A stretch of DNA of 64,000 bases. Source: a virus. Positions 22,244 through 28,926 of this stretch are shown here, piece by piece. The stretch spans positions 12,956-76,955 of IMG/VR virus record IMGVR_UViG_3300050821_002279. One strand, 5' to 3'. The notes under the pieces are model-generated. The model was not told the DNA's origin. It saw nothing but the letters and a program-made list of their open reading frames with translations, and did not search any database. Made by a program: the position numbers and the translations under genes. Numbering within the stretch: the stretch's first letter is position 1; every line of letters begins with the position of its first letter.

Positions 22244-22875
22244 AAATGAAGCTTAGTCGCATTGGCGGCGTACCGTATGGTGGCCGATACGAAATCAACC
22301 GCCCCGATCTCGGAATGGTCGGCATGGGCACGGCGTTCGATATGCTTGAGACCAACGTGCGCAGATATCGTAAGGCCAACGGCATCCCAACCGGCCTTGG
22401 TTTTTCAGAAGAACTTGAGCAAGAAATTTGTAAGCTCTACCCCCAGGAATGTGAGCACGCCGATCCAAATCTGCCGTCAAATATCCGGCTCAGCTTTGAA
22501 GATGTCGTTCACGGCACGCAAGTGCTGGCATCGTTTAAACTCGCCGGATCTCCTTTAGTTCCCAAGCAAGAGGCGGAAAGACGCGCTTCGATTTGTTCTC
22601 AATGCAAGCTTCTTGTTCCATTTGCGCGGCCTTGCGGCGGGCTATGCGGAGCATTGAAGACCGCCGTGGACGAACTCGTTGGCGGATACGAAATCGCTTT
22701 CGACAACGATTTGCGGGCGTGCGGTATCTGTCATTGCTTCGCCGCCTCACAGGTGAGGATACCATACGAACACCTCGAAAAAGGGCTCACCGAGCAGATG
22801 AAGGTGCAGTTTCAGGCGGCAAAGGCTGCGTGGGGGTGTTGGAAGGTGCAAGATTCTTCCACATCCGCCCCTTGA
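22240..22875 (+). CDS. Cys-rich hypothetical protein
   Basis: Motifs 'ICSQC', 'CGGLC' and 'CGICHC'; coupled to terL. Confidence 0.6.
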   Translation: MKMKLSRIGGVPYGGRYEINRPDLGMVGMGTAFDMLETNVRRYRKANGIPTGLGFSEELEQEICKLYPQECEHADPNLPSNIRLSFEDVVHGTQVLASFKLAGSPLVPKQEAERRASICSQCKLLVPFARPCGGLCGALKTAVDELVGGYEIAFDNDLRACGICHCFAASQVRIPYEHLEKGLTEQMKVQFQAAKAAWGCWKVQDSSTSAP

Positions 22876-23482
22876 TAATATTGCGGATGGTCTCACGAAG
22901 AACTCCGCACTCCTTCGCCATGCCAGCCACAAGGCCCCATTTAGATTTACTTGAATTGTAGCGCTGTCTTATTTTCAAAACTTGCTCCTCGGTAAACTTT
23001 GTAGTAACCGGGTGTTTCCTTGGTGGTTCGGTGAGAATTCGCTCGTCAGACCATCCTAGTTTCTTTCTTTGGTGGATTAGTTTTATAGATATGCCTGTTA
23101 TTGTTTCCCATTCTTTGGCGTGGAGTGTTTGACCTTCGAACGTTAACAAACTCCTCGGTCTCCGATTCAGCGCTTGTTCATTTGGATTTGCCCACCGGCA
23201 ATTCATGGGCCAATTGTTAGCAATGCATTCAGGACACTGACCGCACGAATAATGACCGTCATTATTTTTCCGATCTAACGATCTCCCTTCAGGACATGGC
23301 CCCATTATAGCCATGAAATTCAACTTGTCTTTAAAACCCTCACACATCTTAATTCCGCGACCTCCGTAGGCAAAATAATTCCAGCATTTCGGATTGCTGG
23401 TTCTTGCAAAGGCACTCCTTTGCGCGTGAAAAGCTCTAATTACTTCCTTGAAATGGACTACTTGGTTTTCAAACGGTTTCAT
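22787..23482 (-). CDS. HNH-type homing endonuclease
   Basis: 'YGGRGIKMCE..K...F...MG.CPEG.SLDRKNNDGHYSCG.C..C...NCRWA...EQALNRR' plus a C-terminal HTH; similar to 41637..42299. Confidence 0.85.
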   Translation of the reverse strand: MKPFENQVVHFKEVIRAFHAQRSAFARTSNPKCWNYFAYGGRGIKMCEGFKDKLNFMAIMGPCPEGRSLDRKNNDGHYSCGQCPECIANNWPMNCRWANPNEQALNRRPRSLLTFEGQTLHAKEWETITGISIKLIHQRKKLGWSDERILTEPPRKHPVTTKFTEEQVLKIRQRYNSSKSKWGLVAGMAKECGVLRETIRNIIKGRMWKNLAPSNTPTQPLPPETAPSSAR

Positions 23483-23639
23483 AACAAAACTCCGCGAAAC
23501 AGGTTGTAACGTTCGGCCCATTTGAGGCAAAACACCCGAAACGCGGAGCTAAATTGTCTTGATTATTAAGGTAAAACGAACCAAACGTTACGGTGTGAGC
23601 ATAAAACTTAACGCAAACCAAGTCAACCAAGGAGTTTAA

Positions 23640-25919
23640 ATGTCTTACGTCGGCGGAGAAGGTGATTACGGCTTGGAGAGTCTCCAGCTAAAAGAAAACG
23701 GAGGCGTTGCGGTTCCCGAGACGCGCATGAAGTCTGCGGCCCAGGTGCAAGACTTTGGCCGTCGCCTGTGGTTCAATGATGAGAAACGTTCCTTAAAAAG
23801 AGGCAAGGTAAATGGGCTCGTCGGTGGTTTTCCGCCGTACCGCAATTCGAAGCTTCGGGATGCTGGGCTCGCGGCCAACTGTAACGCCAACTTCGGCACC
23901 GCTTCTGCCTACATGGAGAACGGTTCAGGAGCATACTACGATCTTTTCTCCGAAGCCCCCGGCACTGTTGGCATAAAAACCTCTCACGGCACGGATGAGC
24001 AAAGAGATGATTATTCCCGCATCATGTCGTCTGAAGCCGATAAGATTTTCGCCAAAGACGATCTTTGGGATTACGAGATGCAAAGGAGTCAATGGGAAAT
24101 GACGCTGCACGGTCCCGGGCCATTAATCTTCGAAGATGCTTTCAAAGTGCTTCCGCGTGCTGTCGGGGCTGGCGATTTCAAAGTGCCCGAACGAACCAAG
24201 GCTGATGCCGGGTATTACGAAATTGTTTGGGCTGATGTCGATTATTACCCGCCAGAGCTGTACCAGTTTATCAAAAACGAGGCGGCGGCGGCTCAGGTTG
24301 GATGGGATGTCGATTACACTCAGCGTTGCATTGCAAACGCGATGGATATTCGGCAACCAGAGCAGCGCGGGTACGACTGGGAATTTTACCAACAGGAAAT
24401 CAAGAACAACAGTCTTAGCTATTACGACGATTCAAAGGTTATTCACGTCGGCATTTGCTGGTGGAAAGAGTTCGATGGCAGGATTACCCAGGCAATCGTT
24501 GAGCGGGAGAGCACAACGGCAGAAGCTAGCACGGACGATTTGAGCAAGGGCGATGGGGGCGGGGTTAAATTCCTGTTCATCCACATAGGCCGGTACGCGA
24601 ACTTTCGGGAAGCGGTTCATCCGATGTACTTCGACCGTGGCAACGGCGGGTACCATCATTCGGTCACGGGGCTTGGCTCGAAGATGTATTCGGCGATGGA
24701 ATTCGAAAATCGTGGCCTTTGCCGCCTCTGGGACGGCGTATTCGCCCCCAAAGTCCTCTTCAAGCCGACAACCACGGAAGCCTCTCAGAAGATGCAGCTT
24801 GCCCACATGGGCAACTACGGCGTCATTCCCGCTGGATGGGAGGCAGAGGACATGCCGATTAATGGTTATATCAACGAGGGCTTGGCGATGTACCGGGCAT
24901 CGTCGGACCTGATGCGCTCGAATCTTTCGAATTATCGGCAGCAACCGGAGCCACAGAAACCCGGAAACCCGGAAACAAAGTTTGGTCGTCAACTCGATGC
25001 TGCCGCGCAATCCAGCCTTTCGAAAACCACGTTTAATCGGTACTACCGACAGCTTGATTTGCTTTACGCCGAGATTGTTCGACGGCTTTGCAATCTCAAC
25101 TCGACGGATAAACGCGCTCAAGAATTTCAGCAGCGTTGCATGGATCAAGGCGTTCCAAAGGAATGCTTCGGTCGAATTGAAAGTGTGGAAGCAATTCGGG
25201 TCGTTGGCGAAGGCAGCGCGTTTCTTCGAAAATCTTCTCTTGGAGAGATGGGCAGTCTTGTGCCTGGATTACCAGAAGAAGGACAGCAAGCCTGGAAAGA
25301 CGATATGATTGCCGCGACGTGCGGTCAACGCAGCGTCTCGCGGTACAACCCAAGGAAGACGCCGGGGAAGATGCCGAATGACCAGCAATTCATGGCGCTC
25401 GAAGGCGTTTGCATGATGAAGAACGGCATTCCGCCGATTGTCACGTCATCGCAGAACGCGGTTACTTTTGCAGCCGCATATCTAAACGCTGGCGTGCAAG
25501 CCCTGCAAAGCGTCCAGAAGGGCGGAAACCCGGCAGAAGTATTGAAGTTCCTGGGACTGTGCGGACCCGCGATTCTGGCGCATCTAAAGCGATTTGCCAA
25601 AGATCCGTTGCGGCAGCAGGTTTTCAAGGCGATCTTAAAACAGTTTCAGCAGTTGGCTAAACTCACAGACCAATTGAAGAAAAAAGTTCAACAGATGCAG
25701 CAAAAGCAGAAGGAACAACAAGACAAGACGCAACAAGCGATGTCCGACCAGCAGATCGCCACTCAAAAGTTGAAGGGTGACGAAGCCAGAAAAAACGCGA
25801 AGCTTCAATTCCAAATCAAGAGGGATGCAATTAAAACGCGCTCTCAACTCGCCATTGCAGACGCCCAAGCGGCTTCACAGATTCATAGAAGTAATTCGTT
25901 AGCTGCTTTTCAAGAATAA
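23640..25919 (+). CDS. Portal (head-tail connector) protein
   Basis: 759 aa, downstream of terL, AAGGAG RBS, Gln-rich coiled-coil C-terminal barrel as in P22-like portals. Confidence 0.75.
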   Translation: MSYVGGEGDYGLESLQLKENGGVAVPETRMKSAAQVQDFGRRLWFNDEKRSLKRGKVNGLVGGFPPYRNSKLRDAGLAANCNANFGTASAYMENGSGAYYDLFSEAPGTVGIKTSHGTDEQRDDYSRIMSSEADKIFAKDDLWDYEMQRSQWEMTLHGPGPLIFEDAFKVLPRAVGAGDFKVPERTKADAGYYEIVWADVDYYPPELYQFIKNEAAAAQVGWDVDYTQRCIANAMDIRQPEQRGYDWEFYQQEIKNNSLSYYDDSKVIHVGICWWKEFDGRITQAIVERESTTAEASTDDLSKGDGGGVKFLFIHIGRYANFREAVHPMYFDRGNGGYHHSVTGLGSKMYSAMEFENRGLCRLWDGVFAPKVLFKPTTTEASQKMQLAHMGNYGVIPAGWEAEDMPINGYINEGLAMYRASSDLMRSNLSNYRQQPEPQKPGNPETKFGRQLDAAAQSSLSKTTFNRYYRQLDLLYAEIVRRLCNLNSTDKRAQEFQQRCMDQGVPKECFGRIESVEAIRVVGEGSAFLRKSSLGEMGSLVPGLPEEGQQAWKDDMIAATCGQRSVSRYNPRKTPGKMPNDQQFMALEGVCMMKNGIPPIVTSSQNAVTFAAAYLNAGVQALQSVQKGGNPAEVLKFLGLCGPAILAHLKRFAKDPLRQQVFKAILKQFQQLAKLTDQLKKKVQQMQQKQKEQQDKTQQAMSDQQIATQKLKGDEARKNAKLQFQIKRDAIKTRSQLAIADAQAASQIHRSNSLAAFQE

Positions 25920-25956
25920 AAAGAAAATGACTGCCCAAAAAATCAGGCAGTCATTT
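25919..25956. terminator. Probable bidirectional intrinsic terminator
   Basis: AAATGACTGCC-N10-GGCAGTCATTT inverted repeat between convergent units; followed by a T-rich run on the minus strand. Confidence 0.8.
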
Positions 25957-26365
25957 ATCTGACCACACCATGACTTTACTTACCAGAGATTAGCTCACCA
26001 TAGCGCACTGCATCCTGCCAGTCCCGAACTTGCCAATCCTGATTGTTCCAAACCTTACCGGCTTTTCAGCCCGTGCCTTACCAAACCAAACCGGACCCGG
26101 CCTGAGAATGGAGAGCCACAACCCGCCAAGTCTCTCCATGCCATATCATGCAACTCCACTACCTACCGCCCCACGCTCGACCTCTGCCAACCGGAACGCG
26201 CCTAAGCAGACCGGCCAAAAGGCCCGTACCAAACCTAACACTTCCGAACCACTCCGAAGCCAGCCTGACCGCACTCAACCATTCCAAACCATGCACGATC
26301 TCGCCGAAACCAGCCTTTGCTAACCGGACACGAGCCCACACTACCGCACCACTCCTGAGCGTGTC
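25955..26365 (-). ncRNA. Pentamer-repeat array (GGY-like + NN): three blocks of 28, 28 and 21 pentamers separated by 13-nt hairpins; candidate guide RNA precursor
   Basis: Block 1 26365-26226; hairpin GGGCCTTTTGGCC; block 2 26212-26073; hairpin GGGCTGAAAAGCC; block 3 26059-25955. 16/28, 17/28 and 11/21 pentamers begin with GG, and register is unbroken within blocks. Confidence 0.75.
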
Positions 26366-26367
26366 CG

Positions 26368-27000
26368 TCACAGATCGAGGATTTTGAAACCCACGATCTG
26401 AAATCTTCCGAAAGTTGGACGAAAATCCCCAACGCCGATTAACTTTCCGGCCTGCGTGATAACCTCGTTAAGCAAAGTTGGACTGACATACTCGGGAAGG
26501 TTGACCATTAATTGAATTTTGGCCGTCCACCCAGCTTTCATCGCCGGTCTCGTTCGAGTGATCGCATTTCGCTGGATCACAACCCGTCTTTTATCTTCGT
26601 AATCCCAATCCTTAACGCCAAGGCTTGCGAGGTTGGTAACGCTCACAACCGCCGCCTTGAACAGATCCGCAGCAGACTTTCTCGGACTTCGCGGGTCTTG
26701 GCGAAACTTGGATGCGGCGATGATACTCATCCGTAGGTACTCACCGGGGATGGCAAGGTTGCCTTTCTCGTCACGATAAACATAACTTTCCAAGTTATCC
26801 GACTTCTTTGCAGCACTGCCCTTCTTGGCTTTGGCCTTTTCTTCAACCGCTTCACAATTCCAACGGTGGAAAAGAAGATCCGCACTTCCCTGAATCTGAA
26901 TTTCCGCAATGTACGGAATTTCCATTTCGATTGCATCTTTAGCACCATTTGTGGGACAACGATCCCCGCCGAGTTCTGTGGTTTTTGTCGCTGATTTCAT
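26368..27000 (-). CDS. Stand-alone Cas7/RAMP-like protein (210 aa)
   Basis: RAMP-like layout: first strand 'IQIQGSADLLFH', 'LAIPGEYLRMSI' (IPG motif plus helix), thumb 'RRVVIQRNAITRTRP' and C-terminal Gly loop 'AGKLIGVGDFRPTFGRFQI'. Start is ATG 27000. Confidence 0.7.
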   Translation of the reverse strand: MKSATKTTELGGDRCPTNGAKDAIEMEIPYIAEIQIQGSADLLFHRWNCEAVEEKAKAKKGSAAKKSDNLESYVYRDEKGNLAIPGEYLRMSIIAASKFRQDPRSPRKSAADLFKAAVVSVTNLASLGVKDWDYEDKRRVVIQRNAITRTRPAMKAGWTAKIQLMVNLPEYVSPTLLNEVITQAGKLIGVGDFRPTFGRFQIVGFKILDL

Positions 27001-27003
27001 AAT

Positions 27004-27073
27004 TAACCATTCCACGCCGTAACACGCCGCGACTGGCCAAGGCAATGACGGCACTGCCGCATCCAGCCCTGCC
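27004..27073 (-). repeat. Leader pentamer array (14 units) ending 3 nt before the ATG of the RAMP-like gene
   Basis: GGCAG GGCTG GATGC GGCAG TGCCG TCATT GCCTT GGCCA GTCGC GGCGT GTTAC GGCGT GGAAT GGTTA att ATG. Confidence 0.7.
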
Positions 27074-27201
27074 GTGTTTCTGGCAACGCACCCGCCCGTC
27101 GATTGCTGTAACGCAGCAGTTGGGAACCGCTACCAAACGGCGAACGAGTGCAAATTTGTTTTGGTTGTTTCATCCGGTTACAGTCGGACTTTACGCTTGC
27201 T

Positions 27202-27229
27202 ACTTTATCAAAAATGGCATTACTGTCAA
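27202..27229 (-). promoter_or_regulatory. Sigma70-like promoter for the RAMP/array unit
   Basis: TTGACA (27229-27224), 16-nt spacer ending TGA, then TAAAGT (27207-27202), i.e. an extended -10. Confidence 0.6.
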
Positions 27230-27238
27230 CTAGAATTT

Positions 27239-27382
27239 ATGCCCGAAGGTTCCACCGATACCGACGATCAAGGTTTGCCAGAAGACGAGCCGGATGATTC
27301 TGATGAAGACGAGTGCGAAACTCCAGCCGATATTTTCCGCAGCCGCACCGAAGACTTAGGCGATAACCCGCAAACACGATAA
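27239..27382 (+). CDS. Small acidic hypothetical protein
   Basis: ATG 27239, D/E-rich, coupled to the next ORF. Confidence 0.35.
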   Translation: MPEGSTDTDDQGLPEDEPDDSDEDECETPADIFRSRTEDLGDNPQTR

Positions 27383-27579
27383 TGCCAGATAGAGAACAGG
27401 GTAAAATGCTTATGAGTGACTTCGGCTGGTGCCTGGAGTCGGATAAGCCTGAGCGCAAAGACCTTTTATGGGTGCCTACGGGGACGAAGGATATTTACGT
27501 TTGGCAAAGCGATGAAGACGGCTGGATAAAGATTCGACCGCCGCAGACGTTTCCGTGCAGAGAACTCAACCACGGTTAG
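27382..27579 (+). CDS. Hypothetical protein
   Basis: Coupled ORF immediately before the ATP-grasp gene. Confidence 0.4.
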   Translation: MPDREQGKMLMSDFGWCLESDKPERKDLLWVPTGTKDIYVWQSDEDGWIKIRPPQTFPCRELNHG

Positions 27580-28926
27580 ATGAGCGGCGACATTTCAGAA
27601 AAATCGTGTTGCGTCTTTGACCCGGGATACAACATCTCCCTCGCTCGCCGACTTGCCAGAGAGTTTGGGCGCGTAGATTTCTTCGCTGGTTGGAAAGACT
27701 CAGATCCCGAGACCCTAAAGCTCGCCATCGGAACAGGCTTTCCTGAAATAAACCGGGTGCGGCATTTCAGTGATGCGATAAGTCGCAACGACATTTTCAT
27801 TTTCCCGAACATCTATCACGGCGATCTCCAGAGGGACTTGATCAATCGCGGGAAGAGGGTTTGGGGAAGTCGCAAGGCGGAAAGGCTGGAGTACGATCGC
27901 CCGTTTTTCTATAAGACGCTTGAAAAGGTTGGGCTTCCAGTCCCCGAATACCACGTTTTACAAGGGCTTGATGAGCTTGAGGAATTCCTTCAGGAGAACG
28001 AAGGCTGGTGGGTGAAGCTGAATCTTCGCGGGGATGATGAAACGTGGAAGCATGAGACTTGGGAGTTAACCGAGCCAAAGTTTCGCTCGATGCGACAACG
28101 CTACGGCCCGGTCGGAAAGTTCATAACGTTCACACTCGTTAAGCACATTGATTCGATTATTGAAGCTGCTTACGACGGTTTCATGGTGGCATCTCCTACC
28201 GGACTTCCGCAATTCCCGAAGATTGGATTTCTCGGGTACGAGGACAAAGATCTCTCGCACATTGTTCACGCCATCCCGTACGACGATTTTGCCGATCCGG
28301 TTCGCGAAGTGAACGACCTGTTTGCTCCGGTCGCTGCAAGTTACTTCATGCGCAGTGGCTTCGGCACAGAGATAAAGATTGCGGAAGACGAGGAAACCAA
28401 GGAGCAGATCAATTACTTCTTGGACTTCACCGCGAGACAGCCAGAACCGCCAGGGGCTATAATCATGGAGCAGGTAACAAATCTCGGAGCGTTCTTCTGG
28501 CATGGTTCGGAAGGCGAGCTTATCCCGCTCGAAATCGAAGAGGAATTCGGCGTGCAAATCATCATGTACGCTGAGCCATCGCGCTCGAACGTTGTGCCGT
28601 TGCTTTACCCCAAAGAGCTAGATCAATGGGTGAAGCCGTCGCGTTGCTGCATGATCGATGGCACGGTGAACATCCTGCCAGATTTGCTCCTGCGACCGCG
28701 ATCTGAGTCCACCGCGCCGATAGGCTCTGTAGTTGCTCTAGGCGATTCAATCGAGGGCGCGATTGATAAAATCAAAGGGTATCTGGATGAGATTAAGTGC
28801 TCTGGCCTGGATGCTGAGGTTGAATCGCTGGCCGAAGTGCTGAAGAGAATCCAGAAAGGTGAAGAGGAAGAGATACCTTTTGCCGACGAAGTGCCAGCGC
28901 CAGAGGTTGTGACGAACGGAGAATGA
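27580..28926 (+). CDS. ATP-grasp ligase, distantly PurD (GARS)-like
   Basis: 'VWGSRKAERLEYDR.F....LEKVGLPVP', 'WWVK' and 'YFLDFTARQPEPP' correspond to ATP-grasp motifs. Confidence 0.7.
   Translation: MSGDISEKSCCVFDPGYNISLARRLAREFGRVDFFAGWKDSDPETLKLAIGTGFPEINRVRHFSDAISRNDIFIFPNIYHGDLQRDLINRGKRVWGSRKAERLEYDRPFFYKTLEKVGLPVPEYHVLQGLDELEEFLQENEGWWVKLNLRGDDETWKHETWELTEPKFRSMRQRYGPVGKFITFTLVKHIDSIIEAAYDGFMVASPTGLPQFPKIGFLGYEDKDLSHIVHAIPYDDFADPVREVNDLFAPVAASYFMRSGFGTEIKIAEDEETKEQINYFLDFTARQPEPPGAIIMEQVTNLGAFFWHGSEGELIPLEIEEEFGVQIIMYAEPSRSNVVPLLYPKELDQWVKPSRCCMIDGTVNILPDLLLRPRSESTAPIGSVVALGDSIEGAIDKIKGYLDEIKCSGLDAEVESLAEVLKRIQKGEEEEIPFADEVPAPEVVTNGE

Follow-up and report, generated by a model that had tools for sequence, protein, structure and literature searches.

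A probable single-gene VIPR cassette with short hairpin tails on its guide RNA blocks in a complete 77-kb phage genome

Results

The cassette and its surroundings

The window analysed here is a 64,000-nucleotide stretch of a complete virus record of 76,955 bp with direct terminal repeats (IMG/VR record IMGVR_UViG_3300050821_002279). On its minus strand, from 27229 down to 25925, lies a compact group of features which, read along that strand, runs from a promoter through a 14-unit leader vrRNA, the gene vipr and three vrRNA blocks of 28, 28 and 21 GGY-NN pentamers to a terminator. The putative promoter (27202-27229, minus strand) is sigma-70-like, with the -35 box TTGACA, a 16-nt spacer and an extended -10; it agrees with the consensus at 10 of 12 positions and is the sole promoter-like site within 25800-27400. 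The intrinsic terminator predicted from the sequence (25925-25956, minus strand) has a 14-bp stem and a U tract, and to judge by its position it could also stop the convergent plus-strand gene that ends at 25919. The gene vipr (26368-27000, minus strand), which encodes a Cas7-like RAMP protein of 210 amino acids, is the sole plausible minus-strand gene between promoter and terminator; all other frames of that strand in the interval are short ones within vipr or the array, and the neighbouring genes are on the opposite strand. A vap accessory gene is absent from the cassette, counted from promoter to terminator.

Nearly all large open reading frames of the window (up to 1931 amino acids) are without a match in Pfam or PHROG, and it has no tRNAs. 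The phage lineage is very poorly charted, although the genome is complete. A minus-strand reading frame for an HNH endonuclease (22787-23530; PHROG 3377, E 1e-32) stands among plus-strand genes just upstream of a gene for 759 amino acids, and it may be a homing endonuclease.

The Vipr protein

VIPR (Viral Interference Programmable Repeat) is a CRISPR-like, RNA-guided DNA silencer that was first described in 2026 (bioRxiv 10.64898/2026.04.26.720920, 10.64898/2026.04.26.720927), and a further preprint deals with the system of phage SUSP1 (bioRxiv 10.64898/2026.10.15.759431). Its protein, Vipr, is a phage-encoded ancestral RAMP that polymerises along guide RNAs (vrRNAs) of alternating GGY and NN (bioRxiv 10.64898/2026.04.26.720920, 10.64898/2026.04.26.720927). 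The product of the gene studied here falls in PHROG 4652, a family of unknown function, and Pfam gave no match for it or for the neighbouring genes. One entry was returned by a sequence search of the PDB, namely 36pp ("SUSP1 Vipr protein"); the single sequence matched it at E 1.5e-5 and a profile built from 40 homologues at E 4.1e-7, with residues 67-201 aligned. The AF2 model of the protein (pLDDT 75) has its best Foldseek matches among Csm3/Cas7 structures (E 1e-6, TM about 0.5).

The residues by which SUSP1 Vipr contacts its RNA have counterparts here. The G-loop residues D177, W178 and R179 of SUSP1 correspond to D192, F193 and R194, the aromatic character being kept at F193, the thumb residue R138 corresponds to R151, and E71 of helix 1 to E87; all five are invariant or at least 90% conserved among the 40 homologues. 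The N-terminal third of the protein is unaligned to 36pp, including the residue equivalent to H17 of SUSP1, for which H45, invariant and in the region of the first strand, is a candidate. Since the gene upstream of the array is homologous to SUSP1 Vipr and has kept the RNA-contact residues, we regard array and gene together as a VIPR locus. The family is large, with 7477 homologues at E<=0.001 among the collected proteins; IMG/VR has 349 loci, and the nearest homologues are 86-96% identical.

The pentamer array

Directly downstream of vipr, 77 in-phase pentamers occupy 26365-25955 on the minus strand. G makes up 84% of their first and 68% of their second positions, the third has T in 58%, C in 23% and G in 1%, and the last two are unbiased in composition, so that the consensus unit is GGYNN (Y at position 3 in 81%). 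Two insertions of 13 nt each break the register and split the array into block 1 (26226-26365, 28 units), block 2 (26073-26212, 28 units) and block 3 (25955-26059, 21 more degenerate units that run into the terminator). The power of G at period 5 is 5.8, 4.4 and 4.0 in blocks 1, 2 and 3, compared with at most 1.63 in all other 140-nt windows of the 64 kb, and the other periods from 2 to 15 are flat in the array. The division into 28, 28 and 21 pentamers, the last block ending in the terminator, had been read from the letters in a preliminary description of this DNA and is borne out, and the NN strings listed there agree letter for letter with our independent extraction.

Block 2 measures exactly 140 nt between its hairpins, and block 1 has the same length when it is started 2 nt past the vipr stop codon, a start which is supported because its first two weak units fall within an NN string that is common to the related locus L061. 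The preliminary description had taken equal 140-nt blocks as a property of the array. This holds in this genome, and about 28-29 units is common in near relatives, but it fails as a rule, since tracts in 17 loci range from about 11 to 47 repeats. That the unit numbers 14, 28, 28 and 21 are all multiples of seven is a coincidence, as the leader of relatives numbers 11-15 units and their other tracts 11-47.

Tandem Repeats Finder did not call the array, nor was any tandem or direct-repeat array found in 24000-28000; the program misses it because only three of the five pentamer positions repeat. Rfam, searched at permissive E-values, gave nothing relevant in the array and no ribozyme in the region. 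A sponge RNA of the CsrB/RsmZ type, in which hairpin loops expose GGA motifs, was considered and rejected, as there was no Rfam match, the GG motifs of the array RNA are unpaired and phased at 5 nt, and the overall fold is not significant (z -1.9). There are also no CRISPR repeats or spacers beside vipr, the only Rfam CRISPR-DR match reaching 17 bits at E 7.4 against a gathering score of 50.

The leader vrRNA (27004-27073, minus strand) has 14 GGYNN units. A VIPR locus calls for at least 4 tandem units beside vipr on its strand, and here there are 14 upstream and 77 downstream. The leader ends 3 nt upstream of the start codon of vipr at 27000, without a clear Shine-Dalgarno sequence, and by binding at this place Vipr could hold down its own translation. 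A conserved GTGCTT(T)G-like element closely precedes the leader, at about 27082-27093 on the minus strand. It is found at the same place in L001, L017, L054, L055, L057, L059, L061, L062 and L069 and may serve as a 5' handle, as a processing site or in the start of transcription.

In 79 of 80 IMG/VR loci that were fetched, in-phase GGYNN runs flank the vipr homologue, with scores far beyond the 95th percentile set by random segments of these phages' own genomes; the median run has 29 units. The leader of the relatives holds 11-15 units at the same place and mostly ends in GGTTC, followed by a few bases and the ATG. What separates the vrRNAs depends on the Vipr clade and may be an AT-rich tail, a structured tail of about 45 nt or an in-phase GC hairpin. 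In the upstream arrays of L008-L012 and L033-L037, and in L005 (2306-2703), the spacers are either conserved structured elements of about 30-45 nt or AT-rich stretches of 17-24 nt, and the type of tail tracks the clade of the Vipr protein. Two loci of a more distant clade (L004, 3001-4126, and L031, 987-1416) have arrays of 60-86 units with a recurring in-phase GGGG/CCCC hairpin with a UCCG loop, which takes up three pentamer slots and so keeps the register.

Hairpins between the blocks

Both register-breaking insertions are hairpins. Hairpin 1 (26213-26225, minus strand) consists of a G and a 4-bp GGCC stem with a UUUU loop, and hairpin 2 (26060-26072, minus strand) of a G and a 4-bp GGCU/AGCC stem with a GAAA loop, each directly after a GGYAC unit, just as the preliminary description had it. 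It had also remarked that the stems differ and still pair; RNAfold, given 23 nt of context, forms both (-10.3 kcal/mol for hairpin 1 and -8.6 kcal/mol for hairpin 2), and the inner pair of hairpin 2 differs from that of hairpin 1 on both sides, which is a compensatory change.

The motif recurs, with the same or compensated stems, in 16 related loci. In the nearest subclade, where Vipr is 62-85% identical, the punctuation has the same order: after a unit with a final C come a G, a stem beginning with GG, a tetraloop and the complementary stem, and the next GG unit adjoins directly, with a total hairpin length of 13-19 nt. Because the first search had required pairing, it was repeated on the outer anchor alone, and fully Watson-Crick interiors were then found in 17 of 18 distinct instances with 8 nt, three of four with 10 nt, seven of nine with 12 nt and one of five with 14 nt, with 10 different inner stems among them. 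In the 4-bp class all 64 of 64 cells are paired, a value that none of 500 shuffles reached and that is lost when the partner is slid, and two of the four pairs have changed on both sides; this pair count is drawn from the search that required pairing, and the outer-anchor test alone is free of that bias. The loops (n=27) are GAAA in 17 cases, another GNRA in two and UUCG in two, and the unit that precedes the hairpin always ends in C, a base that the search did not demand. Under the same search 27 hairpins lie on the gene strand and one on the other, a biased count, because flanking GG was demanded on both sides and this context exists only on the gene strand. A role at the DNA level is argued against by the loops, since GNRA and UUCG loops are special only in RNA of the vipr sense. 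Terminators were considered as a further reading of the hairpins and rejected, as no U tract follows them.

Between boundaries, which may be the stop codon, the hairpins or the end of the array, the 17 hairpin-bearing loci have about 11-47 repeats, and in the nearest relatives the lengths cluster loosely at 27.6-30 repeats. The earlier suggestion that the hairpins mark the boundaries of units or filaments fits what is seen in the relatives, where such hairpins, conserved and covarying as RNA, stand at tract ends. We read them as the short form, in this subclade, of the structured 3' tail of the vrRNA.

Guide modules in the NN positions

When the NN strings were aligned unit by unit against the arrays of relatives, three shared modules were found. 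Units 1-12 of block 1 (26306-26365) have their counterpart in L061, where one of the 24 NN bases differs, units 20-28 of the same block (26226-26270) are common to L054 without any difference in 18 bases, and units 9-18 of block 2 (26123-26172) are common to L058, L061 and L067 with one difference in 18-20 bases. The module scores are 21, 18 and 17, whereas none of 60 NN-shuffled controls exceeded 13. At the GGY positions of these units the difference amounts to 33-47%, no lower than the 42-45% between random pairs of pentamers, and at the third codon positions of vipr these phages agree in only 32-41%. Because the NN bases are kept while GGY and synonymous sites are saturated, it is the NN positions on which selection acts, as the VIPR code predicts; the modules were chosen on their NN match, so that the contrast with GGY is partly built in, while the excess over the shuffled controls is not.

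The position of the modules relative to the hairpins is variable. The module of block 2 lies inside the block in this phage, whereas it occupies the 5' end in L061 and L067 and stands close to a unit start in L058, and the module formed by units 1-12 of block 1 is 5'-terminal here and 3'-terminal in L061. The one that is common to this phage and L054 ends exactly at a hairpin in both. This varying placement suggests that each 28-unit block combines several shorter guides, and as shared modules ignore the hairpin boundaries, the hairpins may not be what defines a guide. The proposal that the hairpins mark off separate guides is thereby weakened: with shared NN strings of 9-12 units, one block is probably not one guide.

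Target searches and the CBASS cyclase match

A gapped search with shuffled-NN controls had been proposed with the first reading of the array, and for whole blocks it gave nothing above the shuffled background at any gap size. With skips of 0, 1, 2 and 3 in the phage genome and about 130 related loci, nothing exceeded the order-shuffled controls, the skip-3 matches being the array itself. Local gapped scoring at skip 1 over 1.4 Mb, including 17 whole related phage records, was also negative; the leader scored 15 there and the highest control 14. IMG/VR was scanned six times with exact seeds of 9-10 units, taken from every block, and no match was returned, which is weak evidence of absence because only near-perfect targets are detectable in this way. 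Two 12-unit patterns with 3 mismatches allowed had zero matches, one on 5 and the other on 50 whole related virus records. The best self-hit was that of the leader at 27150-27190 on the plus strand, with 12 of 14 coded bases over 7 units, and it was rejected, as 10 of 100 order-shuffled leaders equalled it.

The module of block 2, compared with 401 prokaryote genomes, had six matches where a reversed control pattern had five, which in number is background. Two of the six hit CD-NTase genes (Pfam SMODS and DncV-like) at one common site, both on the opposite strand; L193 (1501-1529) and L200 (7426-8625) are the stretches concerned. The site encodes PISIIITTLA, of the 20 NN bases of the module (26123-26172, minus strand) 19 fit it in one genome and 18 in the other, and every skipped base is a codon position 3. 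The version of the module that is found in three related phages (among them L061 and L067) fits at 20 of 20, and the sole mismatch in the better match is the base at which this version differs from that of the present phage. PISIIITTLA is exact in 51 of the 120 closest members of the CD-NTase family, and 52 of 120 are compatible with the module at the protein level. One of the two genes belongs to a chromosomal type II CBASS operon with CD-NTase, E1-E2 (ThiF-E1), JAB and 2TM-SAVED genes, and this operon adjoins guaB and guaA.

In block 2 the fit to the site is confined to 10 of the 28 units and does not extend into the flanking ones. Other guides of the clade gave nothing above controls against the CD-NTase family and the CBASS operon. 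The remaining module matches look like chance, two being in metallopeptidase and HisA-like genes and two more in L192 and L194. By a rough estimate that allows for the other searches that were run, a match such as that to the CD-NTase genes has a chance probability of about 0.004 to 0.03, and we treat it as a lead and not as a result.

Discussion

The stretch from 27229 to 25925 on the minus strand is very probably a single-gene VIPR cassette of a complete 77-kb phage, in which the hairpins are the subclade's short form of the vrRNA 3' tail and the blocks are probably composites. The first reading of the array, with a filament protein, a gapped code and hairpins as boundaries, was essentially right, save for the rule of equal lengths and the equation of one block with one guide. 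Its remark that the array does not look like a decaying microsatellite agrees with what we find, a set of guide RNAs for a Cas7-like filament protein, with the gapped code of the published VIPR mechanism.

The closest known system is the type II VIPR of Escherichia phage SUSP1, which has Vipr, Vap1 and four vrRNAs (PDB 36pp). In both the phage encodes a small RAMP whose contact residues in G-loop, thumb and helix 1 are the same, both have gene-strand GGY-NN pentamers with one vrRNA upstream of vipr and three downstream, and in both each repeat tract ends in a structured 3' element. This element is a tetraloop hairpin of 13 nt in our phage (13-19 nt in relatives), whereas in SUSP1 it is a pseudoknot of roughly 40 nt, which caps the filament and from which the assembly on DNA appears to proceed (bioRxiv 10.64898/2026.04.26.720920, 10.64898/2026.04.26.720927, 10.64898/2026.10.15.759431). 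The tracts hold 21-28 units here and 9-16 in SUSP1, and natural vrRNAs of up to 30 repeats have been described (cryo-EM preprint on VIPR). Unlike in SUSP1, the cassette is without a vap gene, which is typical of published loci although not universal (VIPR preprints), the blocks look composite, and a satellite or prophage target was not found. The Vipr protein itself is distant (E 1e-5 to 1e-7), with about 28 extra N-terminal residues and a lysine-rich insert.

Other VIPR architectures, namely staggered, interspersed with hammerhead ribozymes and with a single vrRNA, are presented in figs S17-S20 of a VIPR preprint. As far as those figures go, the likeness to our locus is in having several vrRNAs per transcript with a clade-specific separation, and degeneracy of GGY is noted there too; the difference is that the separator is here neither a 1-nt overlap nor a ribozyme. 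The Cas7 backbone proteins of class 1 CRISPR systems (Csm3 of type III-A and Cas7 of type VII) are the best structural matches and have in common with Vipr one protomer per fixed step of RNA and a base-flipping thumb, but the step in VIPR is 5 nt with sequence-specific recognition of GGY, in contrast to a sequence-independent step of 6 nt. The locus is thus one more example of the known VIPR kind, with a short hairpin that replaces the longer guide tail.

By analogy with SUSP1, one Vipr protomer would sit on each pentamer, burying GGY and presenting the NN pair. We infer that the array is transcribed and processed and that the resulting filament would read double-stranded DNA with one base skipped per unit and silence the gene to which it binds. 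Each 13-nt hairpin ends a repeat tract and breaks the 5-nt register, and most likely it caps the filament, protects the 3' end after processing, or both. Each block bounded by hairpins probably combines two or three guide modules, every one 9-12 units long. Experiments on VIPR have so far been made with two closely related type II systems (VIPR preprints).

It could be argued that the hairpins do not delimit guides at all in this VIPR array, and that the working guides are the modules of 9-12 units, either cut out elsewhere, as in the published staggered arrays, or acting as independent segments of one long filament, with the hairpins serving only as blocks to exonucleases or as nucleation points for Vipr assembly. 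The different placement of the same modules in this phage, L058, L061 and L067 is what one would then expect, as is the fit of only 10 of the 28 units of block 2 to the candidate CD-NTase site; published arrays without tails between the vrRNAs and the absence of a hairpin in L001 at a unit boundary that carries one here point the same way. However, every hairpin closes an in-phase tract behind a conserved GGYNC unit and is followed without a gap by the next tract, the module shared with L054 stops exactly at the hairpin in both phages, and in SUSP1 it is the 3' structure that caps the filament and the end from which assembly has been seen. We therefore consider this alternative rather unlikely, if worth keeping in mind, and prefer to see the hairpins as the tails of composite vrRNAs.

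Two further explanations would deny the array its function as a guide. The RNA might mainly serve to bind Vipr, as a platform or sponge by which the protein is titrated or its translation regulated, and the position of the leader against the start codon, where bound protein could be repressive, fits this, as does the lack of any whole-block target in the searches. A pure platform would however keep GGY and leave NN free, the opposite of the pattern in the shared modules, and published Vipr-vrRNA complexes do bind and silence DNA (VIPR preprints), so we find this explanation improbable. Still less credible, to the point that we would set it aside, is a decaying pentanucleotide microsatellite or an element that acts as DNA, for instance by cruciforms at the GGCC palindromes, without any function of the RNA. 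Apart from the repeat-like appearance of the letters nothing speaks for it. Tandem Repeats Finder made no call here, 79 of 80 relatives with differing NN content have the pattern beside the same gene, the loops are strand-specific RNA tetraloops, and the hairpins stand 27 to one on the gene strand, biased as that count is.

On the CBASS lead, it is possible, though we hold it to be doubtful, that the subclade carries a conserved guide module of 10 units against the cyclase (CD-NTase) gene of type II CBASS, and that the long hairpin-bounded vrRNAs are composites of several guides. CBASS is not mentioned in the VIPR preprints (bioRxiv 10.64898/2026.04.26.720920, 10.64898/2026.04.26.720927, 10.64898/2026.10.15.759431). 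A weakness of the idea is that the cyclase is expressed before infection, and silencing may come too late for a lytic phage. If it is true, a phage would use RNA-guided silencing on a host defence gene, beyond rival mobile elements.

The locus belongs to a large Vipr clade of soil phages and differs from the VIPR systems studied so far in three points: the guide tail can shrink to a 13-nt tetraloop hairpin, the tracts reach 28 units, equivalent to 84 bp of DNA, and the cassette can work without an accessory gene, if it works at all. For engineering, a tail of 13 nt would mean a smaller guide scaffold. The hairpin tail, the composite blocks, the absent accessory gene and the CBASS lead may deserve a specialist's further attention. 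The survival of NN amid randomised GGY, together with the shifting strings of 9-12 units, bears on how guides originate and spread and on filaments with more than one specificity, and if the match to the CBASS cyclase holds, the use of VIPR would be widened from conflict between mobile elements to direct counter-defence.
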